DNA of 64,000 bases from Thermoanaerobaculia bacterium (GTDB lineage Bacteria > Acidobacteriota > Thermoanaerobaculia > Multivoradales > JAIOJS01), in contig CAWDWV010000003.1 in assembly GCA_963806095.1 (NCBI GenBank), positions 64,657-128,656 on the forward strand, read 5' to 3'. The notes under the pieces were generated by a model. The model saw only the letters and a list, made by a program, of their open reading frames with translations. It did no database searches and was not told the origin of the DNA. The translations under genes and the position numbers were made by a program. Below are positions 36,049 to 53,291 of the stretch, in pieces. Positions within the stretch are counted from its first letter, which is position 1. Each line of letters begins with the position of its first letter.

Positions 36049-36537
36049 AGCGTCGCCTTGATCATCAGCTGCAGCTTGTCGCAGGCGGCGACGAAGCGCG
36101 CCTCCGGCGTCGCCTTGGCGCGGTACTCGCGATAGAGCGCGACCGCGCGGTCGCCGAGCGGCGCCAGCAGCTCGCGAAAGCGCCGCTTCCTCGGCGGCGT
36201 GCTTGGCGCCGTCGGGCAGGTAGCGCGCCGCGGTGCGCGGCAGGTCGCCCAGCCGCACCTCGGCGAGGTCGTGGACGATGGCGAGCTCGGCGGCGCGCGC
36301 CGCGTCGAGCCCCGGCACCTCGGCGGCGAGCGCCCACACCAGCAGCACGACGTGGAAGGCGTGCTCGCTGACGCTCTCCGGCTCCGCCACGCCGCGCAGC
36401 GCCCAGCCGCTGCGCGGCACGCGGTCGAGGATCTGCAGCTCGAGCAGCGAATCGAGGAGCGAGTCGTGGCGTTGCACGGGCGTGAGTCTATGGGGCTCGG
36501 CGCCGCGGCGAGCGACGGCGTAGGATTCACCGCGCAT
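35907..36537 (-). CDS. HD-domain phosphohydrolase (YfbR-like 5'-deoxynucleotidase family); single frameshift
   Basis: [25 protein letters not shown] and [12 protein letters not shown]. The frame switches near 36185-36195 (AAEEAA|[11 protein letters not shown]). Confidence 0.75.
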
Positions 36538-36561
36538 CGCTGGCAACCGGGAGGTGGCCCC

Positions 36562-37014
36562 ATGTTCAAGGAGTTCCGCGAGTTCGCCGTGCGCGGCAGC
36601 GTCGTCGACCTCGCCGTCGGTCTCATCATCGGCGCTTCGTTCGGCACCATCGTCAAGTCGGTGGTCGACGACCTGCTGATGCCGCCGCTCGGCCTGGTCA
36701 CCGGCGGCATGGACTTCGCCGACCAGTTCGTGCTGCTCAAGGCCGGCAACCCGAGCGGGCCCTACCTCAGCCTCGAGCAGGCCAAGGCCGCCGGCGCGGT
36801 GACGATGAACTACGGCGCCTTCCTCAACAACGTGGTGAGCTTCGTCCTCGTCGCCTTCGCCGTCTTCCTGATCGTGCGCGCCGTCAACCGGCTGCACCGC
36901 GAGGAGCCGCCGCCGCCGCCGAGGAGCAAGAGCTGCCCGTTCTGCGCCACCGACATCCCGGCCGCCGCCGTGCGCTGCCCGCACTGCACGTCGGAGCTGC
37001 CGAAGGCGGCCTGA
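36562..37014 (+). CDS. mscL: Large-conductance mechanosensitive channel MscL with a C-terminal CxxC..CxxC extension
   Basis: [31 protein letters not shown] and [23 protein letters not shown]. The tail is [19 protein letters not shown]. Confidence 0.9.
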
Positions 37015-37042
37015 TCGAGGCGCCGGTCAGGCTGCCGCGACG

Positions 37043-37636
37043 ATGGCTTCCGCAGAGAACGAGGTGACGGCGGCGCTCGCGGCATGGAGTGCCGGCGATC
37101 GGGAGGCGCTGCCGCGGGTGCTGCCGCAGATCTACGACGAGCTGCGGGCGCTCGCCGCGCAGCACCTGCGCAAGGAGCGCGCCGGCCACACGCTGCAGGC
37201 GACGGCCCTCGTCAACGAGGCGTTCCTCCGCCTCTGCGGGCGCGAGCGCGTGCACGTCGAGGCGCGAGTGCAGTTCTTCGCCGTCGCCGCGCAGGCGATG
37301 CGGCGCGTGCTCGTCGACCACGCCCGCAGGCGGCAGGCGGGCAAGCGCGGCGGTCGCGAGACGCCGGTGCCGCTCACCGAGGTCGCCGCGGCCGAGCTCG
37401 CCGCCGCGCCTGAGGAGGTGGACGTCCTCGACGTCGACGCCGCGCTGACGCGACTCGCCGCCCTCGACGCGCGGCAGGCGCGAGTGGTGGAGCTCAGGTT
37501 CTTCGCCGGCATGGAGGTCGAGGAGATCGCGGCGGCCCTCGACGTCTCGGCCTCGACGGTGCGGCGCGAGTGGCGGATGGCGCGCGCCTGGCTGCGCGGG
37601 CAGCTGGCGGGCGGCGCGGCGACCGCGCGCGGGTGA
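37043..37636 (+). CDS. ECF-type RNA polymerase sigma factor (Sigma70_ECF family)
   Basis: AWSAGDREALPRVLPQIYDELRALAAQHLRKER, LQATALVNEAFLRL and VVELRFFAGMEVEEIAAALDVSASTVRREW. Confidence 0.85.
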   Translation: MASAENEVTAALAAWSAGDREALPRVLPQIYDELRALAAQHLRKERAGHTLQATALVNEAFLRLCGRERVHVEARVQFFAVAAQAMRRVLVDHARRRQAGKRGGRETPVPLTEVAAAELAAAPEEVDVLDVDAALTRLAALDARQARVVELRFFAGMEVEEIAAALDVSASTVRREWRMARAWLRGQLAGGAATARG

Positions 37637-37719
37637 GTGCCGACAGCGCGCGAACGGCCGCTACCCCTCGTGGCATACTCGGCCGGCCGCCGTCGCCGCG
37701 GCGGCGCCTCCCCCCAGCC

Positions 37720-38562
37720 ATGACCGATCCCCGGCCCGGCTCGCTCCCCCGGATCTCCGTCGTCGTGCCGGTGTTCGACGAGGAGCCGAACCTCGCGCCG
37801 CTGGTGGCCGAGATCGGTGCCGCGCTCGCCGGCCTCGACTACGAGCTCCTGGTGGTCGACGACGGCAGCCGCGACGGCACCGCTGCCACGCTCGCGCGCC
37901 TCGCCGGCGAGCAGCCGCGCCTGCGGCCGCTGCGCCACGACCGCAACTACGGCCAGTCGGCGGCGCTCGCCACCGGCTTCGCCAGTGCGCGCGGCGAGCT
38001 GCTGGTGACGCTCGACGGCGACCTGCAGAACGACCCGGCGGACGCGCCGCGCCTGCTCGCCGAGCTCGACCGCGGCTTCGACGTCGTCTCCGGCGTGCGC
38101 CGGCGGCGGCAGGACAGCTGGGTGCGCAGGGTGTCGTCGCGTGTCGCCAACAGCGTGCGCCGGCGCGTGCTCGACGACGGCATCACCGACGTCGGCTGCT
38201 CGCTCAAGGCTTACCGCACGCGCGTCGTCAAGCGGCTGCCGCCGTTCGCCGGCATGCACCGCTTCCTACCCGCGCTCGCCCGCATGGAGGGGGCGCGCGT
38301 CACCGAGCTGCCGGTGGCCCACCGGCCGCGCCGCTTCGGCAAGAGCAAGTACAACATCAGCAACCGCCTGTGGCGCGGCATCGCCGACCTGCTCGGCGTC
38401 TGGTGGCTGCAGCGCCGCTGGGTAGCCGTCGCCAACGTCGAGGAGATCGCCGCGTGCACATCGACAGCATCTGGACCGTCGTCGGCTTCGCCGGGCAGGG
38501 CCTCTTCTTCTGCCGCTTCTTCGTCCAATGGCTCGCCTCCGAGCGCGCCAAGCGGAGCGTGA
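37720..38562 (+). CDS. GT2 polyprenyl-phosphate glycosyltransferase (DPM1/ArnC-like); 3' end uncertain
   Basis: ISVVVPVFDEEPNL, LVVDDGSRDGT, LDGDLQNDP and RRFGKSKYN. Conservation ends at about 38445, and the ORF tail overlaps the next gene. Confidence 0.8.
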   Translation: MTDPRPGSLPRISVVVPVFDEEPNLAPLVAEIGAALAGLDYELLVVDDGSRDGTAATLARLAGEQPRLRPLRHDRNYGQSAALATGFASARGELLVTLDGDLQNDPADAPRLLAELDRGFDVVSGVRRRRQDSWVRRVSSRVANSVRRRVLDDGITDVGCSLKAYRTRVVKRLPPFAGMHRFLPALARMEGARVTELPVAHRPRRFGKSKYNISNRLWRGIADLLGVWWLQRRWVAVANVEEIAACTSTASGPSSASPGRASSSAASSSNGSPPSAPSGA

Positions 38563-38762
38563 TCCCGCAGGCCTTCTGGTACTTCAGCCTCGGCGGCGGC
38601 ACGGTGCTGCTGCTCTACGCGATCTTCTCGCTGCACGACCCGGTGTTCACCGTCGGCCAGGCGGCGGGGCTCTCGATCTACGCCCGCAACCTGTGGTTCA
38701 TCCACAAGGGCGCCAAGCCGCCCGGGGCGAGCGGGGACCCCGCCGGCGACGCGGCAGTTTGA
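38454..38762 (+). CDS. Lipid-A-biosynthesis N-terminal (LAB_N) domain membrane protein
   Basis: GFAGQGLFFCRFFVQWLASERAKRSVIPQAFWYFSLGGGTVLLLYAI is the LAB_N signature. Confidence 0.7.
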   Translation: MHIDSIWTVVGFAGQGLFFCRFFVQWLASERAKRSVIPQAFWYFSLGGGTVLLLYAIFSLHDPVFTVGQAAGLSIYARNLWFIHKGAKPPGASGDPAGDAAV

Positions 38763-38788: not shown

Positions 38789-38816
38789 TTGACAGCCCTC
38801 GGCGGATTGATATCCT
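38789..38816 (+). promoter_or_regulatory. Sigma70-like promoter candidate for the respiratory cluster
   Basis: TTGACA (38789-38794), a 16-nt spacer, then TATCCT (38811-38816). It lies about 80 nt upstream of the ActA-like start. Confidence 0.35.
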
Positions 38817-38893
38817 GCGCCCCGGTTTTCGAGGCCATAAAAGCAGTGCAGACCGAAGCGGCGAAAGTCACCTCGCGGTAACGGGAGCGTTCG

Positions 38894-39541
38894 TTGGCGC
38901 AGGTCTTTCCACAGTGGGCGAACAAGGTCCCCCTCATCATTGGCGTCGGCGCGGTCGGCTTCGCGCTCTTCGCCACCTTCGGCATTTGGTACTGGTTCTC
39001 CCCGGCCTTCACCGACGCCGGCTATCGCCCCGAGCAGCCGGTGCCGTTCAGCCACAAGCTGCACGCCGGTGACCTGCAGGTCAGCTGCCTCTACTGCCAC
39101 GGCAACGTCGAGCGCGCCGCGGTGGCCTCGGTGCCGTCGACGCAGCTGTGCATGAACTGCCATGCGCTGGCGGCGCGTGACAAGGCGAGCCTCGAGCCGG
39201 TGCGGGCGAGCGCCAGCAGCGGCCAGCCGCTGATGTGGGTGCGGGTGCACAAGGTGCCCGACTACGCCTTTTTCACCCACGCGCCCCACCTGCGCGCCGG
39301 CGTCGGCTGCAGCAGCTGCCACGGCGACGTCAAGACGATGGAGCGCATCCAGCAGGTGGAGCCGCTGTCGATGGCATGGTGCCTCGACTGTCACCGCGAT
39401 CCGAAGCGCCACCTGCGGGCGCCGGACGAGCTGCTCGACACCGCCTGGCAGGCGCCGCAGGACCAGGACGTGCGCGCCGCCAAGTGGCTGTCGGAGCGCC
39501 AACTGGCGCCGCCGGTGGACTGCACCGGTTGCCACCGCTAG
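38894..39541 (+). CDS. actA: Pentaheme cytochrome c, ActA-like (Alternative Complex III subunit A family)
   Basis: An N-terminal TM anchor plus five CxxCH motifs: CLYCH, CMNCH, CSSCH, CLDCH and CTGCH. Confidence 0.8.
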   Translation: MAQVFPQWANKVPLIIGVGAVGFALFATFGIWYWFSPAFTDAGYRPEQPVPFSHKLHAGDLQVSCLYCHGNVERAAVASVPSTQLCMNCHALAARDKASLEPVRASASSGQPLMWVRVHKVPDYAFFTHAPHLRAGVGCSSCHGDVKTMERIQQVEPLSMAWCLDCHRDPKRHLRAPDELLDTAWQAPQDQDVRAAKWLSERQLAPPVDCTGCHR

Positions 39542-39556
39542 AGCACACACCGAGCC

Positions 39557-42500
39557 GTGAGCGAACCACTCGACCTGACCGCCGACGACGCCGCGAGCCC
39601 CGCCGTGCCCACCGGCCAGCCCGACGCGTCGCCGCGGCCCGAGACCTCCAAATCCTACTGGCGTAGCGTCGAGCGGCTGCTCGCTTCGCCAGCCGTGCAG
39701 GAGGAGCTGCAGCGCGAGGTCGAGACCGAGTTCCCCGCCGGCGCCCTCGACGCGCCCGACACGGTCACGCGCCGCAGCGTGCTGCAGCTGCTCAGCGCCT
39801 CCTTCGGCCTCGCCGGGCTCACCGCCTGTCGCCGCCCGGTCGAGCACATCGTCCCCTACGTGCGCCCGCCGGAAGAGATCATCCCCGGCATCCCGCAGCG
39901 CTACGCCACGACGCTGCCGCACGGCACCGAGGCGCTGGGCGTCGTCGTCGAGAGTCACGAAGGGCGGCCTACGAAGGTCGAGGGCAACCCGCGCCATCCG
40001 GCCTCGCACGGCGCCGCGAGCGCCTGGGCGCAGGCCGCCGTGCTCGACCTCTACGACCCCGATCGCGCCGACCGCGTGCGTCATCGGGCGACTGCAGGGA
40101 GCGAGGGCGAGGAGGCGAGCGACTGGGAAGCCTTCGGCAAGTGGTGGGCCGAGCGCGCCACGGCACTGGCGGCCGATGGCGGCAGCAAGCTCGCCGTGCT
40201 CGCCGCTCCGTTCGCCTCGCCGACGCTGGCGCGGCTCGCGCGCGAGCTGCGTTCGCGGTACCCGGCCATGCGCTGGGCGTCGTGGGACGCGCTCTCGGAA
40301 GAGGCGATCTTCGCCGGCAACGGCGGCATGCGCCCGGTCTACCAGCTCGACCGCGCCAAGGTGGTGGTGGCGGTCGACTGCGACCTGCTGCTCACCGAGG
40401 CCAACGCCGTCCACAACAACCGGACCTTCGCGCAGGCGCGGCGGCCGGAAGCGGCCGCGGCGCGTCCCGAGGGCATGCTGCGGCTCTACGCCGTCGAGGG
40501 GGCGCTATCGCTCACCGGCGCCAATGCGGATCACCGGCTGGCGCTGCGGCCGCGTCACGTCGGCCCCTTCGTCGCCGCGCTGGCGAAGGCGCTCGGCGTC
40601 GCCGCCGCCGGGTTGCCTGCCGTGTCCGCGCTGCCGCCGCCGGTGGCCGCCCGCGCCGCGGTGATGGCGCGCGACCTGCGCGCCGCCGGTGCCGCGGGTG
40701 TGGTGGCGGTGGGGCGCCGGCAGCCGGCGGCCGTCCACGCCGCGGCGTTGGCGATCAACCGCACCCTCGGCAGTGTCGGCACTGCGGTAGCGCTGCAGCC
40801 GCTCGACGACGTCGCGGCCAGCAGCGTCGCGGCGCTGCGCGAGCTCGCCACCGCGATGGCGGCCGGGCAGGTCGACACCCTGGTGGTGCTCGGCGGCAAC
40901 CCGGTCTACGACGCGCCCAGCGACCTCGACTTCGCGGCGGCGCTCGCCAAGGTGCCCAACAGCGTCTGCCTCAGCCCCCACCGTCATGAGACCGGCCGCC
41001 TCTGCGCCTGGCACGTTCCCGAAGCGCACGCGCTCGAGGCGTGGGGCGACGCGCGCGCCGTCGACGGCACGGCGTCGGTGATCCAGCCGCTCATCGCGCC
41101 ATTGCTCAACGGAGTGAGCCGCGTCGAGCTGCTCGGCTTGCTGGCAACCGGCGCGGCGCAACCCGGCCACGACCTCGTGCGCGCCACCTGGAGCGCGGCC
41201 GCGGCGGACGACCTCGCCTGGCGCCGCATCCTGCACGACGGCGTGGCGCCCGCCGGCGCGCTCGCCGGCGGCGGCGGCGCCGTCCGGAGTGGCGGTGGCG
41301 GAAGCACTGCGGTGACCGCCACCGCGGCGCCCGGTGCGGTACCGACAGCGCGTCCGCGCGAGCACCTGCCGCCGCCGTCCGGCGCCGCGCTCCCCTCCGC
41401 GCCGCCCTCCGACGAAAACACCGCGGTCACCACCCAAGGCGTCGGCGGCGGCCCGGTGGCGCTCGAGCACGCCGAGGAAGCGCAAGCCGCGGCGCCGCAC
41501 GGCGAGATGGACCTCGTCATCCTCCCGTCGCCCAACGTCTGGGACGGCGCCTCGGCCAACAACGCCTGGGTGCAGGAGCTGCCGCACCCGCTCTCCAAGC
41601 TCACCTGGGACAACGCCGCCTATCTCGCACCGGCGACGGCCGCCGAGCTCGGCGTCGAGACCGGCGACCGCGTCCTCGTCGTCGCCAACGGCCACCGCGC
41701 CGCCTTCGCCGTCGTCATCCTCCCCGGCACGCCTGAGCACACGGTGGCGGTGGAGCTCGGCTACGGCCGCGAGGGCCTCGGCCACGTCGCCGACGGCGTC
41801 GGCGGCAACGCCTACCCGCTGCGCGCGAGCGGTTCCTTGTGGGGTGCCTTCGGCGTCGAGGTGCACCGCACCTGGTTCGACCCGGAAGACGGCGAGCACC
41901 GCCTCGGCATCACCCAGACGCACTGGGAGATCGAGGGCCGCCCGCTGGTGCGCGAGGCGAGCCTCGCCGAGTACCGCGCCGACCCGGCGTTCGCCAAGGA
42001 GCCCGACCGCGAGCACGAGGAGGCGATCCCGCTGTGGGCGGAGCCGGTGTCGTGGGACAAGGGGCCGCAGTGGGCGATGGCCATCGACCTCTCGGCCTGC
42101 ACCGGCTGCAACGCCTGCGTCGTCGCCTGCCAGGCGGAGAACAACGTGCCGGTGGTGGGCCGCGAGATGGTGTCGCGCGCCCGCGAGATGCACTGGCTGC
42201 GCATCGACCGCTACTTCGCCGGCGAGCCGGAGTCGCCCGAGGTGGTCTTCCAGCCCGTCCCCTGCATGCACTGCGAGAACGCGCCCTGCGAGCAGGTCTG
42301 CCCGGTGGCGGCGACGGTGCACGACCACAACGGCCTCAACGCCATGGTCTACAACCGCTGCATCGGCACGCGGTACTGCTCGAACAACTGCCCCTACAAG
42401 GTGCGGCGCTTCAACTTCTTCAACTACACCAAAGACACGCCCGAGCTGATGAAGCTGGCGATGAACCCCGACGTCACCGTGCGCTCGCGCGGGGTGATGG

Positions 42501-42772
42501 AGAAGTGCACCTACTGCGTGCAGCGCACCGTCGAGGCGCGCCAGGCGGCCAAGCTCGCCGGCCGCGCCGTCGCCGACGGCGAGATCCAGACCGCCTGCCA
42601 GCAGACCTGCCCGACGCAAGCCATCGCCTTCGGCGACAAGACCGACGCCAAGAGCCGCGTGGTGGCGCAGAAGGCCTTGCCGCGCGACTACGTGCTGCTG
42701 GGCGAGCTCAACAACCGCCCGCGAACGAGCTACCAGGCCAAGGTGCGCAACCCCAACCCGGAGTGGGCGTGA
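39557..42772 (+). CDS. actB: ActB-like fusion of a molybdopterin-oxidoreductase-like domain and a 4Fe-4S ferredoxin domain
   Basis: Tat-like TRRSVLQLLSASFGLAGL and a MopB-like body. C-terminal Fe-S motifs are CTGCNACVVAC, CMHCENAPCEQVCP, CIGTRYCSNNCP and CTYC...CQQTCP. Confidence 0.85.
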   Translation: MSEPLDLTADDAASPAVPTGQPDASPRPETSKSYWRSVERLLASPAVQEELQREVETEFPAGALDAPDTVTRRSVLQLLSASFGLAGLTACRRPVEHIVPYVRPPEEIIPGIPQRYATTLPHGTEALGVVVESHEGRPTKVEGNPRHPASHGAASAWAQAAVLDLYDPDRADRVRHRATAGSEGEEASDWEAFGKWWAERATALAADGGSKLAVLAAPFASPTLARLARELRSRYPAMRWASWDALSEEAIFAGNGGMRPVYQLDRAKVVVAVDCDLLLTEANAVHNNRTFAQARRPEAAAARPEGMLRLYAVEGALSLTGANADHRLALRPRHVGPFVAALAKALGVAAAGLPAVSALPPPVAARAAVMARDLRAAGAAGVVAVGRRQPAAVHAAALAINRTLGSVGTAVALQPLDDVAASSVAALRELATAMAAGQVDTLVVLGGNPVYDAPSDLDFAAALAKVPNSVCLSPHRHETGRLCAWHVPEAHALEAWGDARAVDGTASVIQPLIAPLLNGVSRVELLGLLATGAAQPGHDLVRATWSAAAADDLAWRRILHDGVAPAGALAGGGGAVRSGGGGSTAVTATAAPGAVPTARPREHLPPPSGAALPSAPPSDENTAVTTQGVGGGPVALEHAEEAQAAAPHGEMDLVILPSPNVWDGASANNAWVQELPHPLSKLTWDNAAYLAPATAAELGVETGDRVLVVANGHRAAFAVVILPGTPEHTVAVELGYGREGLGHVADGVGGNAYPLRASGSLWGAFGVEVHRTWFDPEDGEHRLGITQTHWEIEGRPLVREASLAEYRADPAFAKEPDREHEEAIPLWAEPVSWDKGPQWAMAIDLSACTGCNACVVACQAENNVPVVGREMVSRAREMHWLRIDRYFAGEPESPEVVFQPVPCMHCENAPCEQVCPVAATVHDHNGLNAMVYNRCIGTRYCSNNCPYKVRRFNFFNYTKDTPELMKLAMNPDVTVRSRGVMEKCTYCVQRTVEARQAAKLAGRAVADGEIQTACQQTCPTQAIAFGDKTDAKSRVVAQKALPRDYVLLGELNNRPRTSYQAKVRNPNPEWA

Positions 42773-43446
42773 GAAGGGCGCCGCTGCTCGCGCTCGTGCT
42801 GCTCCTCGGCGCCTGCCGCGGCTGCCCGTCGTCGCGGCCGCCCATCCATTTGAACCCCAACATGGACGTGCAGCCCAAGGGCAAGCCGCAGGCCGAGAGC
42901 GGCTTCTTCGCCGACGGCGCCGTCATGCGCGTGCCCGTCGCCGGCACTGTCGCCCAGGGCGAGCTGCGCGAGGACTCCGCCTGGTGGACCGGCAAGGACG
43001 CCGCCGGGGGTTGGATCGGCACCATCCCCGGCCATGCCGACGGCGCCGTCCTCGCCCGCGGCGAGCAGCGCTACGGCATCTTCTGCGCCCCCTGCCACGG
43101 CGCGCAGGGCGATGGCAAGGGCATGCTCTTCCAGCGCGCCCAGGTGCAGTCGGCGAACTTGATGGAGGCGCGCTTCCGCGCCATGCCGGCCGGCCAGATC
43201 TACGACGAGATGACCAACGGCTTCGGGCTGATGCCCGCCTACGGGCCTTTCATCCCGGTGGCCGACCGCTGGGCGATCCTCGCCTACCTGCGCAAGCTGC
43301 AGGCGGAGACGCCGGTGGCCGAGAGCGCGGCGCCCGCCGCCGAAGCGGCTGCCGCCCCCGGCGAGCCCGCCTCGCCAGCCGCGCCAAGTCCCGCACCCGA
43401 TAACGCGCCAAGTCCCGCGCCCGCCTCGCCCGGAGCCGCGCGTTGA
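42769..43446 (+). CDS. Monoheme cytochrome c lipoprotein (ActE-like)
   Basis: Lipobox LLLGAC and a single CAPCH with GLMPAY (Met ligand region). The GTGA start overlaps the actB stop. Confidence 0.75.
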   Translation: MRRAPLLALVLLLGACRGCPSSRPPIHLNPNMDVQPKGKPQAESGFFADGAVMRVPVAGTVAQGELREDSAWWTGKDAAGGWIGTIPGHADGAVLARGEQRYGIFCAPCHGAQGDGKGMLFQRAQVQSANLMEARFRAMPAGQIYDEMTNGFGLMPAYGPFIPVADRWAILAYLRKLQAETPVAESAAPAAEAAAAPGEPASPAAPSPAPDNAPSPAPASPGAAR

Positions 43447-45413
43447 GCAAGCGCAACCTGTTCCTCGGCGCCGTCGCGCTGCTCGTCGGCCTCGCCGTCC
43501 TCGGCTGGCTGGCGCGCGCCTTCGACGCCCGCCTCGCCTACCACCCGCCGACCCACGTCACCACCGACCAGGACACCCCCCGCGAGCAGGCGCTGCGCCA
43601 GCAAGCCGCGGCGGAGGCGGAGACGGCGAAGGCGAAGAAGTACGAGGAGGCCGAGTACCGCCGCTTCCCCGGCACCGGCAGCCGCGTCGCCATCTGGATG
43701 GTGGCGCAGCTGCACCTGCTCTTCGCCGCCTTCGTGCTCGCGGTGCCGCTCTTCGCGCTCATCATCGAGTACATCGGGTACCGCACCAAGGACCCGCGCT
43801 ACGACGCGCTCGCCTACGAGTTCACCAAGCTGCTGTCGACCTCGTTCTCGTTGACCGCCACCTTCGGCGCGGCGCTCACCTTCATGCTCATCGCGCTCTA
43901 CCCGAAGTTCACCAACTACCTGATGAGCGTCTTCTCGCCGACGTTCCTGCCCTACGTGCTGCTGTTCTTCTTCGAGGCCGGCTTCCTCTACTCCTACTAC
44001 TACGGCTGGCACAGCTTCAGTAAGCGCGTGCACCTGCTGCTCGGCGTCGGCTTGAACCTCGTCGGCACGGCGATCATGTTCATCGCCAACGCCTGGCTGA
44101 CGTTCATGATGACGCCCAACGGCGTCTCCGAGTCGGGGGCGACGATCAGCACCTGGGAGGCGGTCCGCAACTACACCTGGATGCCGATCAACATCCACCG
44201 CATCATCGCCAACGTCGCCTTCGGCGGCGCGGTGGCGGCGGCGTACGCGGCCTTCCAGTTCCTGCGCGCCAAGACGCCGGAGGAGCGCGCCCACTACGAC
44301 TGGATGGGCTACATCGGCAACTTCGTCGCCATCTGCGCGCTGCTGCCGCTGCCCTTCGCCGGCTACTGGCTGGCCTCCGAGATCTACGCCTTCTCGCAGA
44401 CCATGGGCCTGATCATGATGGGCGGCGCCTTCTCCTGGCTGTTCATCATCCAGGCGGTGCTCATCGGCTGCCTCTTCCTCGCCGCCAACTACTACCTCTG
44501 GCTGGGCATGGGGCGCATCGAGGGCGCCGAGCGCTTCCGGCCGTTCATCAAGTACCTGCTGGCGCTCGATCACCGTCTGCTTCATGGTGTGGGCGACGCC
44601 GCGCTCGATCATCGCCACCGTCGAGGAAGTGCAGAACATGGGCGGCGCCAGCCACCCGCTGCTCGGCTTCCTCGGCGTCATGTCGGCCAAGAACACGGCC
44701 GTCAACCTGCTCATCCTCACCACCTTCGTCAGCTTCATGCTCTACCGGCGCAGCGGCCGCGTGCCGACGGTGCCGTGGGCGAAGCTCGGCAACCTCATCC
44801 AGTTCGTCGATCTTCGCGGCCGCGGCGGCCATCGTCATCTTCTTCGGCATCTACGGCTACTTCGTGGAAGCGGCGGTGCGCATCAAGTTCTCCATCCCGC
44901 AGGTGCTGTCGGTGCTCTTCGCCATGATCGCCGTCACCGTCGTCGACGTGCTGATGATGCGCGGCGCGCGGCAGACCGCGGTGCGCTGGGGGACGATCCC
45001 GAACCACGCCGCAGTACGTGCTCATCTTCCTCGCCGTCACCTTCACCTGGATGATGGGCCTGATGGGCTACGTGCGCTCCGGCCTGCGCCAGCACTGGCA
45101 CGTCTACGGCGTCATCCGCGACAACTCGCCGGACGCCTTCACGCCGACGCTGGGCTTCGCGACGCGGGTGGTGTCGGCGACGGTGCTGCTGTTCTTCGTC
45201 CTCATCGGCCTGGTGTTCTGGCTGGCGAGCCTGGCGGGGAAGAAGTCGCACCACGACGACATCGTGACGGCCTACACGCCGACCCCCGAGCCGTCGCCCG
45301 ACGCCGCTGCCGGTTTGATCCCACCCGGCGGCGGCTCGCTGCCGGTGCCGACTCACTCCGCGGAGGCGGACCTCGATGAAGAGTGCCGATCGTCGTCAAG
45401 ATCGGCGCGCTGA
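43443..45413 (+). pseudogene. Cytochrome bd subunit-I (CydA) superfamily 'bd-like' membrane protein; needs 3 frame changes
   Basis: CydA-like TM1 AQLHLLFAAFVLAVPLF, FIANAWLTFMMTPNG (compare ANGWMQNPVG) and INIHRIIANVAFGG. The frame switches at about 44568, 44809 and 45011. No CydB-like gene is adjacent. Confidence 0.7.
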
Positions 45414-46208
45414 CGCTGGCGTCGACGGCGTTCTACACCTACGTCGGCCAGTTGGTGCCGCAGAAGGAAGTGCAGCCGCCGGCGGAGACCAAGATGTCGG
45501 CGTCGATGACGACCGCCGACCTGGTGACGACCGGCAAGACGCTCCTCGAGGGGAAGGGGAGCTGCATGACCTGCCACACCATCGGCAAGACCAGCGGCCC
45601 GATGCGCTTCCCCGATCTCGCCGGCATCGGCGGACGCGCGGGCACGCGCGAGCCGGGGCTCGACGCGCTGACCTACCTGGCGAAGAGCCTCTACCATCCG
45701 AACGACTTCATCGTCCCCGGCTTCAGCCCCGGCATGCCGGCGATCAACAAGCCGCCGATCGGGCTCACCGACGACGAGATCCGTGCCGTCATCGCCTACC
45801 TCGAGTCGCTCGGCGGCACGCCGGCGGTGACCATGCAGACGGCGATCCCCTTCTCCGTGGGCGGCGCCGCGCCACCGCCGGGCGAGGCGGCCGCGGGCGC
45901 CGAGGCCGTCGCGGCGGCGCCTGAGGCCGGGGTGGCGCCCGCGGCGTCGCCAGGCGCCGCGCCGGCGTCGGCGGCCGCGGCGCGCGCGCCCGAGGCGCTG
46001 GTGAGCCAGTACCAGTGCGCCGACTGCCACGCCGACGGGGAAGCAGAAGCCGAGCCTCGACACGTCGGAGGCGAGGGGTGAGCCGACGCTGCTCGCCGCG
46101 CTCGCGGCGCACCCGCCGACCCCCGCCAAGTTCGAGCAGGCCATCACCCTCGCCGAGGCGCGCGCGCTGGCGCGCTACCTCGCCGCCCAGGGCGGAGGTG
46201 GAGCGTGA
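45376..46208 (+). CDS. Membrane-anchored diheme cytochrome c; 1-2 frameshifts
   Basis: CMTCH and CADCH. ATG 45376 has a GGAGG RBS but needs a frame switch at about 45387; GTG 45383 is the alternative start. An extra G in GGGG at about 46036 truncates the annotated ORF, and the corrected frame ends in GTGA overlap with the next gene. Confidence 0.7.
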
Positions 46209-47050
46209 ACTGGGGCTTCGTGGCGGCGGCCGTCCTGGCGCTCGTCGCGCTGCGCTTCGTCGACGGGCGCTTCCTGCGCGTGCCGCTGCTCGCCTGGCTG
46301 GGTGCCTGCTTCGCCGCCATCGCGGTCGTCCTGCGCTGGGGGTTCGTGGTGCCGATCCCCGCCTCGGTGCTCAACCTCTACCTGGCGATCGTCGCCGGCG
46401 CGCTGGCGGTCTACGCCACCACCGACCGCGAGCGGCTGCAGGAGGTGACGCGCCCGCTCTTCGCCTTCCTCACCGAGCGGCGCTTCGTCATCCCGCTGGT
46501 CCTGGTGGCGCTCGCCATCCCGGCGGCGGTGGCGGCCAAGATCTACCGCGACCTGACCTCGCCGCCGGTGCCGCCGTTCTTCGGCCGCACCATCCACCCG
46601 GCACCGCCCAACCAGATCACCGTCCACGACAAGGTCTACGACCTCACCACGCTGTCCAACCCGCACCGGGCGCTCGAGCGCACCAACCCGGCGCTCTACC
46701 GGCAGAAGGTGGAGGCGGGGCGCGTCGTCTACTACGAGAACTGCTTCTACTGCCACGGCGACCTGATGCGCGGCGAGGGGATGTTCGCCCACGCCCTGCT
46801 GCCGGTGCCGACCAACTTCCAGGACCCCGGCACCATCGCCCAGCTGCAGGAGGACTACCTCTTCTGGCGCATCGCCAAGGGCGGCCCCGGCCTGCCCGAG
46901 GAGGCGGGGCCGTGGTCGTCGGCGATGCCGGCGTGGGACCAGTTCCTCGACGAAGATCAGATCTGGGACGTCATCCTCTTCCTCTACGACTTCACCGGCA
47001 ACCGCCCGCGCGCGCGTCACGCCGTGACGGCGACGTCGACCCATGAATAG
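46205..47050 (+). CDS. Membrane (3-4 TM) monoheme cytochrome c
   Basis: An N-terminal TM bundle followed by YYENCFYCHGDLMRGEG and WSSAMPAW. Confidence 0.75.
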   Translation: MNWGFVAAAVLALVALRFVDGRFLRVPLLAWLGACFAAIAVVLRWGFVVPIPASVLNLYLAIVAGALAVYATTDRERLQEVTRPLFAFLTERRFVIPLVLVALAIPAAVAAKIYRDLTSPPVPPFFGRTIHPAPPNQITVHDKVYDLTTLSNPHRALERTNPALYRQKVEAGRVVYYENCFYCHGDLMRGEGMFAHALLPVPTNFQDPGTIAQLQEDYLFWRIAKGGPGLPEEAGPWSSAMPAWDQFLDEDQIWDVILFLYDFTGNRPRARHAVTATSTHE

Positions 47051-48935
47051 AAGCCGCGGCCGCCGCTCGTCGCCGCTCGCTGCCGGCTCGATCGGTGCCG
47101 TAGCCCTGGCGCTGCTGCTCCTCGCCGCACCCGACCGCGCGCAGGAACAACCCGGCGAGTCGAGCGGCGGATCGGGCCCGACCACCGCCGGCCCTCGGCA
47201 GGCGCAGCCAACGGGTGGCGCTGCCGTCTACACCAAGTACTGCGCGCAGTGCCACGGCGACAAGGGCGACGGCCTCGGCATCGCCGCGCCCTTCCTGCGC
47301 CCGGCGCCGCGCGACTTCACCTCGGGCAAGTACCAGATCCGCTCCACCGCCACCGGCAACCTGCCGACCGCCGACGACATCAAGCAGGTGATCCGCCGCG
47401 GCATCCCCGGCACCGGCATGCCGGCGTTCGAGGAGGTCACCGACGTCGAGGACCAGCTCGACGCTCTGGTGGCGCACCTGCAGGCGTTCTCGCCCAAGTT
47501 CAAGGGGGCGCGCGCGCCCGAGCTGATCTCGATTCCCAAGGATCCCGGCTACAAGCCCGACCAGGTCGAGGCGGCGCGCAAGGTCTACACCTCGATCGGC
47601 TGCGCCGGTTGCCATGGCGCCGAGGGGCGCGGCGACGGCGCTTCGGCGCCGACGATGAAGGACGACTGGGGGCAGTTCGTGCGGCCCGCCGACCTGTCGC
47701 GGCCGTGGACTTTCAACGGCGGCGCCAGCCGCACCGACGTCTTCCGCTCGATCAGCACCGGCCTCAACGGCACGCCGATGGCGGGCTTCGCCAGCGCGCT
47801 CTCCGAGGAGCAGCGCTGGCAGCTGGTGGACTTCATCACCTCGCTGGCGGGCGGCGACACCGAGAAGGTGCCGTACGCGAACCTGGTGGTGGGCAAGCAG
47901 GTCGAGGGCGAGCTCGACCTGGCGCAGGGCAGGAAGCTCTTCGAAGGCGCCGAGCCGGCGCTCTTCCCGCTGCTCGGCCAGGTCATCCAGCCGGGCCGCG
48001 CCTTCCAGCCCTCGACCGTCGCCGTCGAGGCGCGCGCGGTCTACAACCGCGACGAGGTGGCGCTGCTCATCACCTGGCACGACGTCCAGGCCGACCGTGG
48101 CGGCAACAACGGCCCAGACTTCGAGCTGCCCGAGCAGGAGGACCACCCCGGCCTCGAGCCGAAGGTCTCCGGCGGCGGCCAGGCGCCGGTCACGACCGAG
48201 CAGACAGATCCCTTCGCCGACGAAGAGGCGCCCGCCGCAGCCGCGCCCAGCGCCGATCCGTTCGCAGACGAAGAAGTGACACCCACGTTGACGCCCGCAG
48301 GTCCGGCTGACCAGGCAAGCGCCGATCCGTTCGCGGAGGAGGAAGCGCAAACCGGCGGGGGAGCAGAGGGAGCGGCGACGGCGGCGGAAGGCTCGGCGGC
48401 GAGCCAGTTCTCCGACGCCGTCGCCGTGCAGTTCCCGCGACAGCTCTCCGACGGCGTGCGCCGCCCGTACTTCGTCTTCGGCGATCCGCAGGACCCCGTC
48501 GAGCTCTGGTTCGTCGACCTCGCAAGCCCCGGCAAGGCCGAGCTGTGGGAGGGGAAGGGCAGCGACGACCTGCTGCCGGGCGAGGGCGTGACGCCGGAGA
48601 CCCGCGCCTCCTTCGACAAGGGCGAGTGGTCGGTGATCCTCAAGCGCAAGCGCGACGCCGGCCGCGGCATCGCCTTCCCCGACGACGCCTTCGTACCCAT
48701 CGCCTTCTCGGTGTGGGACGGCTTCCTCGACGAGCGCGGCAACAAGCGTGCGCTCTCCACCTGGTACCACCTCTACATGCCGCCCGCCGAGCGGCCGTCG
48801 CCGTGGATCGCCATGGCCAAGGCGGCCGGCGTCGTGCTGCTCGTCGAGATCGTGGTGATCGCGCTGGTGCGCCGTCGCGCCCAGCGCCGCCGGACTCCCG
48901 CGGTGGCAGCCGATGCCGCCGCGGGCGCCGCCTAG
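47043..48935 (+). CDS. Diheme cytochrome c fused to an ethylbenzene-dehydrogenase-gamma-like (EB_dh, NxrC/DMSO-reductase type II gamma-like) domain, with a C-terminal TM anchor
   Basis: Signal peptide, then CAQCH and CAGCH. The EB_dh-like part is AVQFP..RRPYFVFGD...WSVILKRK...FSVWDG. The C-terminal TM segment is AAGVVLLVEIVVIALV. Confidence 0.7.
   Translation: MNRSRGRRSSPLAAGSIGAVALALLLLAAPDRAQEQPGESSGGSGPTTAGPRQAQPTGGAAVYTKYCAQCHGDKGDGLGIAAPFLRPAPRDFTSGKYQIRSTATGNLPTADDIKQVIRRGIPGTGMPAFEEVTDVEDQLDALVAHLQAFSPKFKGARAPELISIPKDPGYKPDQVEAARKVYTSIGCAGCHGAEGRGDGASAPTMKDDWGQFVRPADLSRPWTFNGGASRTDVFRSISTGLNGTPMAGFASALSEEQRWQLVDFITSLAGGDTEKVPYANLVVGKQVEGELDLAQGRKLFEGAEPALFPLLGQVIQPGRAFQPSTVAVEARAVYNRDEVALLITWHDVQADRGGNNGPDFELPEQEDHPGLEPKVSGGGQAPVTTEQTDPFADEEAPAAAAPSADPFADEEVTPTLTPAGPADQASADPFAEEEAQTGGGAEGAATAAEGSAASQFSDAVAVQFPRQLSDGVRRPYFVFGDPQDPVELWFVDLASPGKAELWEGKGSDDLLPGEGVTPETRASFDKGEWSVILKRKRDAGRGIAFPDDAFVPIAFSVWDGFLDERGNKRALSTWYHLYMPPAERPSPWIAMAKAAGVVLLVEIVVIALVRRRAQRRRTPAVAADAAAGAA
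48207..48344 (+). repeat. Three coding copies of the acidic motif DPFA(D/E)EE in the linker
   Basis: TDPFADEEAP, ADPFADEEVT and ADPFAEEEAQ, read from the ORF translation. Confidence 0.9.
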
Positions 48936-48958: not shown

Positions 48959-51178
48959 ATGTACGACAACATCCTCGTCCCCGTCGACAACTCGCGCCAC
49001 AGCAACCGCGCCATCGACACCGGCGTCGAGCTGGGCAAGCGCTTCGGCGCCAAGCTCGTGGGCTGCCACGTCTACGCCGCCAAGATGCACGACTACCGGT
49101 TCAAGCAGATGGAGTTCACGCTCCCCGAGGAGTACCTCGTCGAGCAGGAGCTGCACCGCCAGCGCAAGATCCACGACAGCCTCATCACCATGGGGCTCGA
49201 GCTGATCTCCGACTGCTACCTGGAGTCGATGAAAGCTCAGTGCGATCGCGAGGGCGTCGCCTTCGAAGGCAAGATGATGGACGGCAAGCACTCGATCGAG
49301 CTGGTGCGCGACATCCGCGAGACCGGCTACGACCTAGTGGTGCTCGGCGTGCTCGGCATCGGCCGCACCCGCGACAGCCAGGTGGGCTCGGTCTGCGCCC
49401 GCATCGCCCAGGAGAGCAGCCGCGACGTCTGGGTGGTCAAGCACCTCCCCGAAGCGGACGAGCCCGAGCGCGACACCGTGCTGGTCGGCGTCGACGGCAG
49501 CCCGAAGTCGTTCGGTGCGTTGACCACGGCGCTCGAGCTCTGCCAGCGCTTCGGCAAGAAGCTCGAGGTGATCGCGGTCTACGACCCCTACCTGCACTAC
49601 GCGGTGTTCAAGGGCGTCGTCGAGGTGCTCACCGAGAAGGCCTCGAAGGTGTTCCGCTTCGAGGAGCAGAACCAGCTCCACGAGGAGATCATCGACACCG
49701 GTCTCGCGGCGATCTACCAGTCGCACCTCAACGTCGCCGAGCAGATGGCGCGCGAGGCAGGCGTCGAGTGCAGCAAGACGCTGCTCGACGGCAAGTGCTT
49801 CCAGAAGGTTCTCGACCACGCGCGCAAGAGCAAGCCGTGGGTGCTGGTGGTGGGGCGGCTGGGCGTGCACAGCGCGGCGGACGCCACGGGCCTCGGCAGC
49901 AACACCGAGAACCTGTTGCGCCTGGCGCCCTGCGACGTGCTGCTGACGACGGCGGAGGTGACGCCCGAGCTCGACGTGCGCGCCGAGGAGAGCATCCACT
50001 GGACGCCGGAGGCGCTCTCGCGCATGGAGCGCGTGCCGCCGGCGGTGCTCGGCATCGCGCGCACGGCGATCCTGCGCCTGGCGCTGGAGCAGGGGCACAG
50101 CGTGGTGTCGTCCGACCTCGTCACCGAGGCGATGGAGCGCTTCATGCCCAAGCGGGCTGCCGAGCGCAACCTCAAGCTCGCCGAGGCGCTGGTGCTCGAG
50201 CGCGCCGAGCGCGGCGAGACGGTGATGGTGTGCACCGGCTGCGGCATCGCCGCGCGCACGGCGCAGGCGGTCAAGTGCCAGGTCTGCGGCGGCGAGAGCT
50301 TCGAGGCCCTCGACCCGCAGGCCATCGCCCGCATCATCATGGAAGAGGGCGGCGCCGAGGAGGAGACCACCTACGACGGCCGCAAGGTGCGCTGGACGCA
50401 GGAGGCGCGCGAGGCGTTGCGGGCGATCGACGACCGCTACCAGCGCCGGCGGGCCAAGGCGCGCATCGAGAAGGCGGCCCACGGCGGGCGGACGGACGTG
50501 GTGACGCTGGAGCTGGCGAAGCGGTTCATCGAGGAGGAGACCGGGATCCTCTTCGCGGCGCCGGTGAAGGCGGATGGCGCGGCAGCGAACGGACACGCGA
50601 GCAACGGTCACGCGGCAAACGGGCACGCCGCAAACGGCAATGGGCAGGGGCATGCGAACGGCGCCGGTGCCAACGGGCACGACGGCAACGGGCATGCGCA
50701 CGCCGCCGATGGGCAAGCTGCCAACGGGGCCGCAGCAAACGGCCATGCCGACGAGGTCGACGGGCCTCGGCTCGTGGCGCGCGACGGCAAGGGCGTGCCG
50801 CTGGTCTCGACGCGCGAGTGGACGACGCCGGCGATCGAGCGCATCGTGCGCGTGCCGGCGGGGTTCATGCGCGACCGCACGCAGGAGCGCGTCGAGGCGC
50901 TCGCCGCGGCCGCGGGCGTCGCGACGATCGACCTGCCGCTGGTCGAGGAGGGCATTCAGCTCGGCGTGCAGGCGATGGAGGAGATGATCGCGCAGCAGGC
51001 CGCGGCACCGGCGGTGGCGGCGGCGGCGGAAACGGCACAGCCGGCGGCGTCAGCTTGCCCGTTCGCCCGCGTCGCCGCGGCGCAACCCGAGGCTCTGCGC
51101 GGTCTCTTCCCGCTCGACGAGGTCAGCGTCGTCAGCGAGCTCGAACGGCAACGCCGCGAGCTCGGCACGCAGAGCTGA
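48959..51178 (+). CDS. Tandem universal stress protein (USPx2) + zinc-ribbon + three PCP_red-like domains
   Basis: USP domains: ILVPVDNS..., VLVGVDGSPKS... and VVGRLGVHS. Zinc ribbon: CTGC..CQVC. PCP_red-like repeats: WTPEALSRMERVPPAVLGIAR, RWTQEAREALRAIDDRYQRRRAK and WTTPAIERIVRVPAGFMRDR. Confidence 0.7.
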   Translation: MYDNILVPVDNSRHSNRAIDTGVELGKRFGAKLVGCHVYAAKMHDYRFKQMEFTLPEEYLVEQELHRQRKIHDSLITMGLELISDCYLESMKAQCDREGVAFEGKMMDGKHSIELVRDIRETGYDLVVLGVLGIGRTRDSQVGSVCARIAQESSRDVWVVKHLPEADEPERDTVLVGVDGSPKSFGALTTALELCQRFGKKLEVIAVYDPYLHYAVFKGVVEVLTEKASKVFRFEEQNQLHEEIIDTGLAAIYQSHLNVAEQMAREAGVECSKTLLDGKCFQKVLDHARKSKPWVLVVGRLGVHSAADATGLGSNTENLLRLAPCDVLLTTAEVTPELDVRAEESIHWTPEALSRMERVPPAVLGIARTAILRLALEQGHSVVSSDLVTEAMERFMPKRAAERNLKLAEALVLERAERGETVMVCTGCGIAARTAQAVKCQVCGGESFEALDPQAIARIIMEEGGAEEETTYDGRKVRWTQEAREALRAIDDRYQRRRAKARIEKAAHGGRTDVVTLELAKRFIEEETGILFAAPVKADGAAANGHASNGHAANGHAANGNGQGHANGAGANGHDGNGHAHAADGQAANGAAANGHADEVDGPRLVARDGKGVPLVSTREWTTPAIERIVRVPAGFMRDRTQERVEALAAAAGVATIDLPLVEEGIQLGVQAMEEMIAQQAAAPAVAAAAETAQPAASACPFARVAAAQPEALRGLFPLDEVSVVSELERQRRELGTQS
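50579..50749 (+). repeat. Coding His/Asn/Gly-rich (A-N-G-H)n low-complexity repeat
   Basis: AAANGHASNGHAANGHAANGNGQGHANGAGANGHDGNGHAHAADGQAANGAAANGHA, with a 12-nt periodicity of gcN aac ggN cac. Confidence 0.9.
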
Positions 51179-51219: not shown

Positions 51220-51452
51220 CTTTCGCGATCCATCGATAGGGGCCGGTGAAATCCCGGCATCGAGTCCGTCTATAGTGGAGCCGGCCTCCCGGTAGACGGT
51301 CTTTGGTCAGGATGAGCCCAGCTGGCTCCGCAGGAGCTCGATCCGGGTGTACACCGCGTCGTGGACACCCAAGGGCACGGAGTGTGCCGTCGGCGCGCTG
51401 CCGGTCACTGCCCCTTGCAAGGATCTGCCCGCCAATTCCGTTCGAGGGAGCG

Positions 51453-52454
51453 ATGGACGCATCCCTCCCGACGGCGGCCGATCCTTCAGCGCCGGCTGCG
51501 CCGCGGCTCCTCGACCGCGTCAGCCATCGCATCCGAGAGCGCCGGCTCTCCCGCCGAACGGAGGAGGCCTATCGGCACTGGGTACGGCGCTACGTGCTCT
51601 TCCACGGCAAGCGGCATCCCTCCGAGCTGGGCATCGTGGAGCTCAACGCCTTCCTCTCTCACCTCGCGGTGGAAGGTCAGGTCAGCCCCTCGACGCAGAA
51701 CCAGGCACTGGCGGCGCTGCTGTTCCTCTATCGCGACGTACTGCAGGTCGAGCTCGGGCAGCCACGCGACTACATGCGCGCCCTGCGGCCGCGACGGCTG
51801 CCCATCGTGCTGTCGAGAACCGAAGTGCGCGCGCTCCTCGCCCAGCTCGACGGCACCGAGCGGCTGCTCTGCACGTTGCTCTACGGCGCCGGCCTGCGGT
51901 TGATCGAAGGACTACGCCTGCGCATTCACGACCTCGACTTCGAGCGGCGCGAGATCACGGTGCGCGCTGGCAAAGGCGACAAGGACCGCCGCACCATCCT
52001 GCCCGCGAGCTCGGTGGAAGGGCTGCAGCGGCACTTGGAGGCCGTGCGCCGGCTCTGGGAGAACGACCACGCTACCAACCTCGAGGGAGTCTGGATGCCG
52101 GCCGCTCTGGACCGGAAGTTCCGCGGCGCCGGCCGCGAGTGGCACTGGCAGTGGCTCTTTCCCACCGCGCGTCCCCAGCGCGACCCGCGCAGCGGTGTGC
52201 TGCGCCGTCACCACTTGCTGGACCGAACTCTCCAGCGGGCGGTGAAACTCGCGGCAGGCAAAGCGGGCATCGCCAAGGCCGCCACGTGCCACACCTTGCG
52301 CCACTCCTTTGCAACCCACCTCCTAGAGGCAGGGTACGACATCCGCACCGTACAGGAGCTCCTCGGCCACCGCGACGTACGCACCACCATGATCTACACC
52401 CACGTTCTCAACCGTGGAGGCCTCTGCGTCCAGAGCCCGGCCGACTTCGGCTGA
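51453..52454 (+). CDS. intI: Integron integrase IntI (tyrosine recombinase)
   Basis: The IntI-specific insertion [39 protein letters not shown]. Catalytic boxes are [46 protein letters not shown] and [11 protein letters not shown]. At 333 aa it is similar in length to IntI1. Confidence 0.93.
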
Positions 52455-52614
52455 ATTCGGGCCGCGTTCGCGGCGGGAGTGAAACAGCTTCTGCGACGCC
52501 GCAGGAGATTGCCGTCACCGATTGTCCGATCCGCCCTGGAGACGAAACCGCATCTTGGACGCTATCCCTACGTCGCCTCGGGACTTGCCCTTCGCGCCGC
52601 GAATCGGGCCCAGC

Positions 52615-52847
52615 GTGTTACGCGTCAATCGGTGTCGCGTAACACTCGGGGAGCGGTTGGAAGGCGCAGGAATCCTTTGTCGCCACTTGCTTGTGAGTCG
52701 GCGAGATAAGCTGGGACATAACAGCGTGACAGCGCGTTACTTGCGGTCGTCGTCAGGTCTCGGGCTGCCGTGTGTTACGCGACAGCCGCATCCACAAGCT
52801 TGCCGGCCGGCTGGCACTCGACCTGTCGGTTAATCAATGGGTTAGGC
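52615..52847 (+). other. Candidate attI region: repeated GTTAC(G) boxes ending in the GTTAGGC crossover core
   Basis: GTGTTACGCG occurs at 52615 and 52772, with its inverted copy CGCGTAACAC at 52636 (10-bp arms, 11-nt spacer). GCGTTAC is at 52734, GGTTAAT at 52828 and GTTAGGC at 52841-52847. No R'' partner is nearby. Confidence 0.5.
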
Positions 52848-53267: not shown

Positions 53268-53291
53268 GACACTTCGCGCAAGGGCTTGCGA

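Follow-up and report, generated by a model that had tools for sequence, protein, structure and literature searches.

A predicted OR-N2-type 'bd-like' gene cluster headed by actA, actB and actE of alternative complex III in an acidobacterial genome

Murali, Gennis and Hemp divide the cytochrome bd superfamily into the groups qOR, OR-C and OR-N, and describe OR-N2 as a subfamily of 14-helix proteins without a quinol site, whose operons typically contain several cytochromes c and an EbdC homologue. Published OR-N2 clusters come from nitrite or manganese oxidizers, namely Nitrospira and Candidatus Manganitrophus (NIDE0901-type and TO_1). Here we describe a related cluster from a probable heterotrophic acidobacterium, located in a 64,000-nucleotide stretch of DNA from a Thermoanaerobaculia bacterium (contig CAWDWV010000003.1, positions 64,657 to 128,656; hereafter, the window). 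Like the published clusters, it encodes a CydA-like protein with 14 predicted transmembrane (TM) helices and equal signature residues, without a Q-loop and without CydB. As in Nitrospira, a cytochrome c and a dihaem-c/EbdC-like haem-b protein are encoded downstream, and a gene with a PCP_red domain (C-terminal domain of protochlorophyllide reductase subunit B) lies nearby. Unlike those clusters, the one described here has a single CydA-like gene with no OR-N1 partner and carries genes for ActA, ActB and ActE in front; furthermore, a dihaem cytochrome c takes the place of a 439-residue unknown protein of Nitrospira.

The three Act proteins connect the cluster to a second known system, alternative complex III (ACIII; ActABCDEF), represented by the complexes of Rhodothermus marinus (6F0K), Flavobacterium (6BTM) and Roseiflexus (6LOD). 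The pentahaem pattern, the N-terminus of the twin-arginine translocation (Tat) variant, the Fe-S cysteine motifs and the lipobox are shared with ACIII, whereas the membrane subunits ActC, ActD and ActF, the quinol site among them, are absent from the operon and the window. ACIII genes are known to adjoin bd-like oxidases: in Nitrospirales, actABCDE is followed by an OR-N5 bd-like oxidase, and TO_3/TO_4 of Ca. Manganitrophus combine bd-like proteins with complex III or ACIII-like parts. Those clusters keep ActC, have ActB split into B1 and B2 and encode a 10-TM OR-N5a/b pair, whereas in the window ActC is missing, ActB is fused and the bd-like protein is of predicted OR-N2 type. In the freely accessible literature, we found no description of an ActC-less ActA-ActB-ActE set directly coupled to an OR-N2 gene, nor of its spread in Acidobacteriota. 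The parts are therefore already known, the combination is one for which we found no description, and it overturns nothing.

Because the window has a G+C content of about 71%, genes were chosen by third-position GC (GC3) instead of by open reading frame (ORF) length. Seven co-directional genes fill the region of 38.9–48.9 kb:

38894-39541, + strand: ActA, a pentahaem cytochrome c with five CxxCH motifs and an N-terminal TM anchor (helix at residues 9-27)
39557-42772, + strand: ActB, 1071 residues, a MopB-like half fused to a four-cluster Fe-S domain, with a Tat-variant N-terminus
42769-43446, + strand: ActE, a monohaem cytochrome c lipoprotein with the lipobox LLLGAC and one CxxCH motif (CAPCH); GTGA overlap with actB
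43443-45413, + strand: CydA-like protein of predicted OR-N2 type, about 14 TM helices; frame broken in the window and native stop at about 45376 disturbed
45383-46208, + strand: cytc2, a membrane-anchored dihaem cytochrome c (CMTCH, CADCH); the ORF as written stops at 46081, with the true tail in the +1 frame to 46208
46205-47050, + strand: cytc3, a four-TM N-terminal domain followed by a monohaem cytochrome c domain (CFYCH)
47043-48935, + strand: cytcEB, a signal/anchor, a dihaem cytochrome c, an EbdC/NxrC-like haem-b (EB_dh) domain and a C-terminal TM helix

Neighboring genes are coupled through overlaps of 4–8 nucleotides, which we read directly at the following junctions:

ActB/ActE: GTGA
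ActE/CydA-like: TTGA
cytc2/cytc3: GTGA
cytc3/cytcEB: ATGAATAG, an 8-nucleotide ATG/TAG overlap

An earlier note on this DNA had reported seven co-directional genes with overlapping stops and starts, and each of them was found where it had been placed. The start-to-stop overlaps also agree with its premise that the genes are co-transcribed. The arrangement is far beyond chance, because the identical gene order recurs in dozens of species-level genomes, and one operon for a membrane-bound respiratory complex is the best explanation for it.

The relationship of the bd-like protein to CydA is supported by three comparisons that all agree. Pfam PF01654 (Cyt_bd_oxida_I) matched with E = 3.8e-25, over model positions 2-245 of 418 alone. 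A search against Geobacillus CydA (5doq_A) gave E = 4e-13 over TM1-5, with H21, E108 and H128 aligned to His, Glu and His. Finally, the AlphaFold (AF2) model of P0007, a homologue with 85% identity, has about 14 TM helices (mean predicted local distance difference test (pLDDT) score of 80; predicted template modeling (pTM) score of 0.79), the same number that hydropathy predicts. In a Foldseek search of this model against the PDB, the ten best matches were CydA chains, all of them, and no NrfD-type protein was among the matches. NCBIfam has no model for the protein. A CydA-CydB fusion could be ruled out, as the protein has 14 helices rather than 18.

In its corrected reading frame (see below), the CydA-like protein carries H91, Y171, E178, H197, H252, M413/N417, S545 and W551, the counterparts of H99, Y183, E190, H213, H269, M430/N434, S563 and W569, which are listed as conserved OR-N2 positions by Murali, Gennis and Hemp (2021, Supplementary Table 6). 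Expressed in canonical CydA numbering, the OR-N2 signature is present as H19=H, E99=Y, E107=E, H126=H, H186=H, M393=M/N, E445=S and W441=W. The first five residues were mapped via the HMMER alignment to 5doq_A, and the last three by motif position and spacing against the published OR-N2 numbering, not by direct alignment. The TM1 His (H91) and the b558-type His/Met pair (H252, M413), corresponding to H19, H186 and M393 of canonical CydA, are thus kept; so is the ANAW..P.G motif, which the earlier note had pointed out together with the TM1 His. These features and the CydA fold are shared with canonical cytochrome bd (CydAB(X)), from which the protein differs in having no CydB partner, five extra helices, a Ser at the E445 equivalent and no Q-loop. 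Instead of the latter, TM6 is followed in the model by a loop of about 30 residues and an extra TM hairpin. Immediately behind TM6, where the canonical Q-loop starts, stands LPFAGYWLAxEIY, a motif with an invariant Glu that is conserved more strongly than any other in the family.

The more distant relatives retrieved in a second homologue search were Nitrospira and Nitrospirota proteins. With one of these, P0389 of Nitrospira sp. Kam-Ns4a, P0007 shares 45% identity over the full length, compared with 31-39% for the other Nitrospirota group. Downstream of the P0389 gene (locus L085) come genes for a cytochrome c and a dihaem-c/EB_dh protein, and upstream of it are a PCP_red gene and a further CydA-like gene. 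Taken together, the signature, the helix number and this relationship lead us to class the window gene as a probable OR-N2-type 'bd-like' gene. The precedent of 'bd-like' oxidases next to NxrC-like proteins in Nitrospira, to which the earlier note had referred, is therefore correct and can be narrowed to the OR-N2 subfamily of Murali, Gennis and Hemp.

The combination of several cytochromes c with an EbdC homologue, typical of OR-N2 operons, was found in the window cluster and likewise at L085. In cytcEB, there are two cytochrome c domains, PF09459 scores above its cut-off, and TIGR03477 (haem-b subunit of type II dimethyl sulfoxide (DMSO) reductases) matches with E = 2.4e-17; the dihaem part matches 6h5l_B with E = 6e-46 and 2ivf_C weakly. 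TM helices are predicted at residues 12-30 and 591-609, so the domain description in the earlier note stands and a C-terminal helix is added to it. The same note had described cytc3 as a TM-anchored monohaem cytochrome. The single haem was found as described, whereas in place of a single anchor four TM helices are predicted. This protein, for which NCBIfam has no model, is 75% identical to the orthologue at L001, the locus of a close relative, and its TM part looks like an anchor because it is poorly conserved and contains no invariant His. The cytc2-type cytochrome is fused to the C-terminus of the CydA-like relatives P0121, P0123 and P0133, and the motif ...MP..I.PP..LS..E...IVAYLQSLGG is common to these fusions, in which the cytochrome bears one or two haems; such natural CydA-like::cytc2 fusions are evidence for a physical link between the core and its cytochromes. 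Other variants occur in the family: P0152 has a cytochrome c domain at its N-terminus (CNTCH), and long insertions are present in P0132, P0135, P0137 and P0150.

Next to this core, the front part of the cluster is derived from ACIII. ActA matches R. marinus 6f0k_A with E = 1.5e-59 over the full length, ActB matches 6f0k_B with E = 2.4e-268 and ActE matches 6f0k_E with E = 1.1e-45. The TRRSVL sequence of ActB occupies residues 71-76, and the Tat-variant N-terminal domain model TIGR04519 scores above cut-off. Every Cys motif of the ActB Fe-S domain aligns with R. marinus ActB, comprising one three-Cys (3Fe-4S) and three four-Cys (4Fe-4S) motifs; the three-Cys motif CIGTRYCSNNCP is identical. On these alignments, we consider the first three genes to encode true orthologues of ActA, ActB and ActE. 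By direct reading, the N-terminal 830 residues of ActB, its MopB-like half, contain no CxxC and no FS0-type CxxC motif, suggesting that the domain is of the cofactor-less type. A catalytic molybdoenzyme role for ActB is unlikely, as the FS0 Cys motif is absent and the protein is an orthologue of the cofactor-less R. marinus ActB. Counted over the whole cluster, the architecture comprises eleven c-haems in the periplasm, one b-haem of the EbdC type and four Fe-S cluster motifs, in addition to the CydA-fold haem protein. The composition given in the earlier note is correct: next to genuine ActA, ActB and ActE, the cluster encodes a protein of the CydA superfamily and four cytochromes of the c type, and one of the latter is joined to an NxrC/EbdC-like domain.

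The same holds for the absence of an NrfD-type subunit and of CydB, which we assessed in the 64-kb window and in the loci of relatives. None of the multi-TM ORFs of the window had a Pfam match to NrfD (PF03916), ActD (PF11821) or CydB (PF02322, Cyt_bd_oxida_II). A tblastn search with ActC-ActD and ActF from the acidobacterial locus L056 and from L057 gave no match anywhere in the window, and the gene tables of the close relatives L001, L002 and L004 contain no ActC, ActD, ActF or CydB within 10 kb.

The distribution of the cluster shows how its two parts are related. More than 7300 relatives of the CydA-like protein are present in a large protein collection, the top 120 all being at least 69% identical, and clustering the library at 50% identity gave 255 clusters below 1e-30. 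Close relatives occur in at least 593 species (one genome per species scanned), among them members of Acidobacteriota (Thermoanaerobaculia, Vicinamibacteria and Polarisedimenticolia), Rhodothermales, Methylomirabilota/Rokubacteria, Myxococcota, Gemmatimonadota and Fibrobacteria. A set of 84 loci was then searched with the proteins that the L001 cluster encodes. The CydA-like gene, cytc2, cytc3 and cytcEB stay together in nearly all loci of sufficient length, one NC10 locus having no cytc3 match, and a Usp-PCP_red gene usually trails this four-gene core. ActB or ActE lies directly upstream of the core in 38 of the 68 loci with enough upstream sequence; all 38 are labeled Acidobacteriota, except for a few metagenome-assembled genomes (MAGs) with another or no phylum label.

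In a neighbor-joining tree of CydA-like proteins with Nitrospirota proteins as outgroups, the ActABE-linked CydA-like genes form one clade with three apparent losses; its sister is a Rhodothermales/Fibrobacteria/Myxococcota group without ActABE. The four-gene core is 66-70% identical in Rhodothermales, Methylomirabilota, Myxococcota and others that have no upstream ActABE. A canonical ACIII (ActC/D/E/F) and a caa3 oxidase are encoded about 3 kb upstream of the core in Rhodothermales. At L056, the end of a canonical ActCD-ActE-ActF set lies immediately in front of the ActA'-ActB'-ActE' genes that open the bd-like operon, and L020 has a second actA-actB1-actB2-actC set on the opposite strand. 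ActABE is a lineage-specific add-on to a self-contained core module, because the core is equally conserved without it and a canonical ACIII with ActC adjoins in some genomes. From the tree and the neighboring ACIII sets, we conclude that this operon carries old, dedicated paralogues of ActABE that lack an ActC of their own; the set appears to have been recruited once and kept since.

We also observed that, in the two closest relatives, the gene immediately preceding actA on its strand encodes a PQQ-repeat (beta-propeller) protein of about 650 residues (L001, 3197-5158; L004, 3274-5193), which the window lacks. This protein may act in the periplasm as a quinoprotein dehydrogenase and supply the cytochrome wire with electrons. 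Further upstream, conserved genes of the window (34285-38762) encode envelope proteins, namely a PMT_2 (ArnT-like) glycosyltransferase, MscL, a GT2 glycosyltransferase and a small LAB_N-domain protein, and are syntenic with L001 and L004.

The CydA-like gene and cytc2 are interrupted by frameshifts in the window. In the GC3 frame plot, the frame of the CydA-like gene changes by +1 three times in succession, near 44555, 44790 and 44990, and the original frame is regained after the third change. DNA alignments to L001, L003 and L004 (83-87% identical) revealed that each change corresponds to one extra base, placed by codon context as G at 44568, G at 44809 and G at 45011. Removal of the three G's yields a continuous frame of 655 codons that is 85-90% identical throughout to intact homologues of 644-645 residues. 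In addition, a missing C and an extra A around 45376-45382 destroy the native stop of the CydA-like gene and the ATG of cytc2, and a shift at the G-run 46034-46037 severs the second haem domain of cytc2, whose tblastn match is split into 45380-46045 and 46038-46163. Frameshifts had been recorded in the earlier note, which understated their number: there are three in the CydA-like gene and another in cytc2. The three shifted segments form the C-terminal helices of the CydA-fold protein, ruling out an NrfD or CydB hidden in this region; this removes the objection, raised in the earlier note itself, that ActC/ActF or CydB homologues might be concealed there. Programmed frameshifting was ruled out as well, since each homologue is one uninterrupted ORF and a shift is also present in an unrelated gene. 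The latter is an HD_3 (YfbR-like) phosphohydrolase gene (35925-36480, − strand), which in comparison with L001 and L004 has one inserted base near 36172-36180 and is thereby divided between two frames. There are hints of more frame switches in the GC3 plot, for example near 280, 1400 and 4630.

Considering function, we regard it as reasonably likely that the cluster encodes a cytochrome-c-fed putative O2 reductase, the OR-N2 core, together with an electron wire derived from ACIII. The core would take high-potential electrons from the periplasmic haem chain and reduce O2, acting as a cytochrome-c-type terminal oxidase on a bd scaffold. Cytochrome c is regarded as the electron donor of OR-N enzymes, which are the only candidate oxygen reductases of a few cultured aerobic Nitrospirales; O2 reduction by the core, and this direction of electron flow, are therefore most likely, by homology with the Nitrospira and Manganitrophus clusters. 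ActABE probably extends the periplasmic wire, and would tie the oxidase to quinol-oxidizing machinery or to other periplasmic donors, with physical docking and the site of quinol oxidation as inferred parts of the proposal. The entry of electrons that we favor would be a canonical ACIII or bc1 complex encoded elsewhere in the genome. Alternatively, they could come from other periplasmic donors, of which the PQQ-repeat protein may be an example, or enter at the bd-like subunit itself, as the earlier note had proposed.

Several points weigh against this assignment. OR-N enzymes have yet to be purified, and their capacity to reduce O2 is unproven. The E445-equivalent haem ligand is a Ser (S545), as in other OR-N2 proteins. 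In Nitrospira, the presumed partner of OR-N2 is another CydA-like protein, OR-N1, and there is no second CydA-like copy at the window or L001 locus. In canonical ACIII, as seen in the R. marinus and Flavobacterium structures, electrons reach ActB from quinol bound in ActC; ActABE without ActC has no evident electron entry point, which makes its role as a 'feeder' a guess.

The cluster could instead encode a true hybrid quinol oxidase, in which ActABE docks on the 14-helix bd-like subunit, or on this subunit plus the four-TM cytochrome, in place of NrfD-type ActC as the quinol-binding and energy-transducing partner. To our knowledge, NrfD-type proteins fill that role in every known ACIII, Qrc and Psr-type complex, and this hybrid would oxidize quinol and reduce O2 with neither an NrfD nor a CydB subunit; if true, this would add a new class to the quinol:O2 oxidoreductases, namely an 'ACIII-bd' chimera that is common among Acidobacteriota of soils. 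The overlap of actE with the CydA-like start codon within a single operon, the lack of ActC/D/F within 10 kb in the window, L001, L002 and L004, the intact ActC-proximal three-Cys motif of ActB and the old, monophyletic ActABE association are consistent with it, as is the LPFAGYWLAxEIY loop, which could putatively bind quinol at the place where a Q-loop begins. Nevertheless, we consider the hybrid unlikely. There is no obvious docking adaptation, because the CydA-like protein is 66-70% identical in phyla without upstream ActABE. Moreover, OR-N proteins are classed by Murali et al. as lacking quinol-site features, Foldseek gave no NrfD-like similarity and the TM domain of cytc3 is poorly conserved. 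The proposal of the earlier note that the bd-like protein stands in for ActC is thus not supported, given a core equally conserved without ActABE and a canonical ACIII with ActC beside the cluster in some genomes. Still less probable is that the CydA-like protein is not an oxygen reductase at all, and serves as a haem-b anchor between the membrane and the periplasmic wire of 11 c-haems and Fe-S clusters, with, for example, metals or nitrogen oxides as the alternative donor or acceptor. In its favor, no OR-N protein has ever been shown to reduce O2, the E445-type ligand and one proton-channel Glu are replaced (Ser545 and Tyr171), the haem number is unusually high for an oxidase and the closest relatives encode the PQQ-repeat protein just upstream of actA. 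However, the protein retains Glu and His at the positions of E107 and H126 as well as the TM1 His and the b558 His/Met pair, OR-N enzymes are the sole candidate oxidases in some aerobic Nitrospirales, and there are no outer-membrane or porin-cytochrome genes near the loci of the relatives (L001, L002 and L004). We therefore hold this last reading to be highly improbable.

A different kind of alternative concerns the frameshifts, which could mean that the bd-like gene and cytc2 are recently inactivated pseudogenes in a decaying operon of this organism. At least six indels fall within 44568-46037, including the lost native stop and the lost cytc2 ATG, and the flanking genes are intact: ActB (3.2 kb), cytcEB and the Usp gene each gave one tblastn segment in one frame against the L001 orthologue. 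Such packing of six of the seven or more indels into 1.5 kb is odd for random error. Against decay, every shift is a +1 insertion, and in four cases the added base is a G, whereas bacterial pseudogenes tend to deletion bias. No substitution creates a stop, GC3 stays near 1.0 in the shifted segments and the identity to homologues there is steady at 80-85%; the unrelated HD_3 gene is frameshifted as well. Going by the record names, many of the relatives come from long-read MAG projects. As the shifts are insertions, GC3 and identity are kept and HD_3 is also affected, we judge assembly errors to be the most likely origin of the frameshifts, and inactivation of the genes to be rather improbable.

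Transcription of the predicted operon may start from a putative promoter directly in front of it:

38789-38816, + strand: sigma-70-like promoter match, TTGACA-16-TATCCT, TG extended, 78 nucleotides upstream of actA

This consensus match is the sole one of its kind across 36-53 kb, where 0.4 are expected from shuffles, and it begins at the coordinate with which the earlier note had opened the cluster. A terminator scan returned weak hits alone, all within coding sequence, and no tRNA genes were found in the 64-kb window. The cluster is followed by one further gene of interest:

48959-51178, + strand: Usp-PCP_red neighbor, with tandem Usp and PCP_red domains (Pfam)

The Usp-PCP_red gene sits directly after cytcEB in most loci of several phyla, and its product is a possible regulator or maturation factor. 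More generally, PCP_red recurs beside OR-N-type genes in Acidobacteriota, Rhodothermales and Nitrospira, as a fusion partner of Usp domains or of a radical SAM/SPASM enzyme, or as a separate protein next to a ParA/Mrp-like ATPase (window, 48959-51178; L001, 15521-20199; L057, 14926-21600; L085, 2825-3286). These proteins may be tetrapyrrole-handling or maturation factors for OR-N-type oxidases.

After the Usp-PCP_red gene, the window diverges from its relatives. A tyrosine recombinase gene (Phage_integrase and Phage_int_SAM_4; 51303-52454) is followed by about 12 kb of DNA of lower GC content (about 63%). Up to position 64000, this DNA contains 11 copies of a repeat of about 50 nucleotides that includes GCCGTTAGGCGGC (attC-like GTTAGGC core), spaced by 400-1800 nucleotides. 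Short ORFs lie between the copies, one of them with a TIR_2 domain (59092-59898). Two identical transposase genes of the IS481 type, each encoding 411 residues (rve, HTH and LZ_Tnp_IS481; 53337-54572 and 61775-63010, − strand), are found inside the array, with at least 300 nucleotides of identical flanks. The array occupies the place of GNAT, ParA-like and PCP_red genes in the relatives, and the region 51303-64000 resembles the cassette array of a chromosomal integron.

Nitrite and manganese oxidizers are believed to rely mainly on OR-N 'bd-like' enzymes as oxidases, yet none of these enzymes has been characterized. Our analysis indicates that the OR-N2 core is far wider than these organisms, many of the at least 593 species being soil or sediment Acidobacteriota, Rhodothermales and Methylomirabilota, and that one large clade joins it to the peripheral half of ACIII, minus the quinol-binding membrane subunit. 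This clade is a natural experiment on what feeds OR-N oxidases and on what the Fe-S/haem wire of ACIII can do in the absence of ActC, and gives a workable approach to two unsolved enzymes. The operon may be present in cultured Vicinamibacteria or Thermoanaerobaculia, in which case the biochemistry of OR-N enzymes would become accessible in heterotrophs that are easier to grow than Nitrospira.

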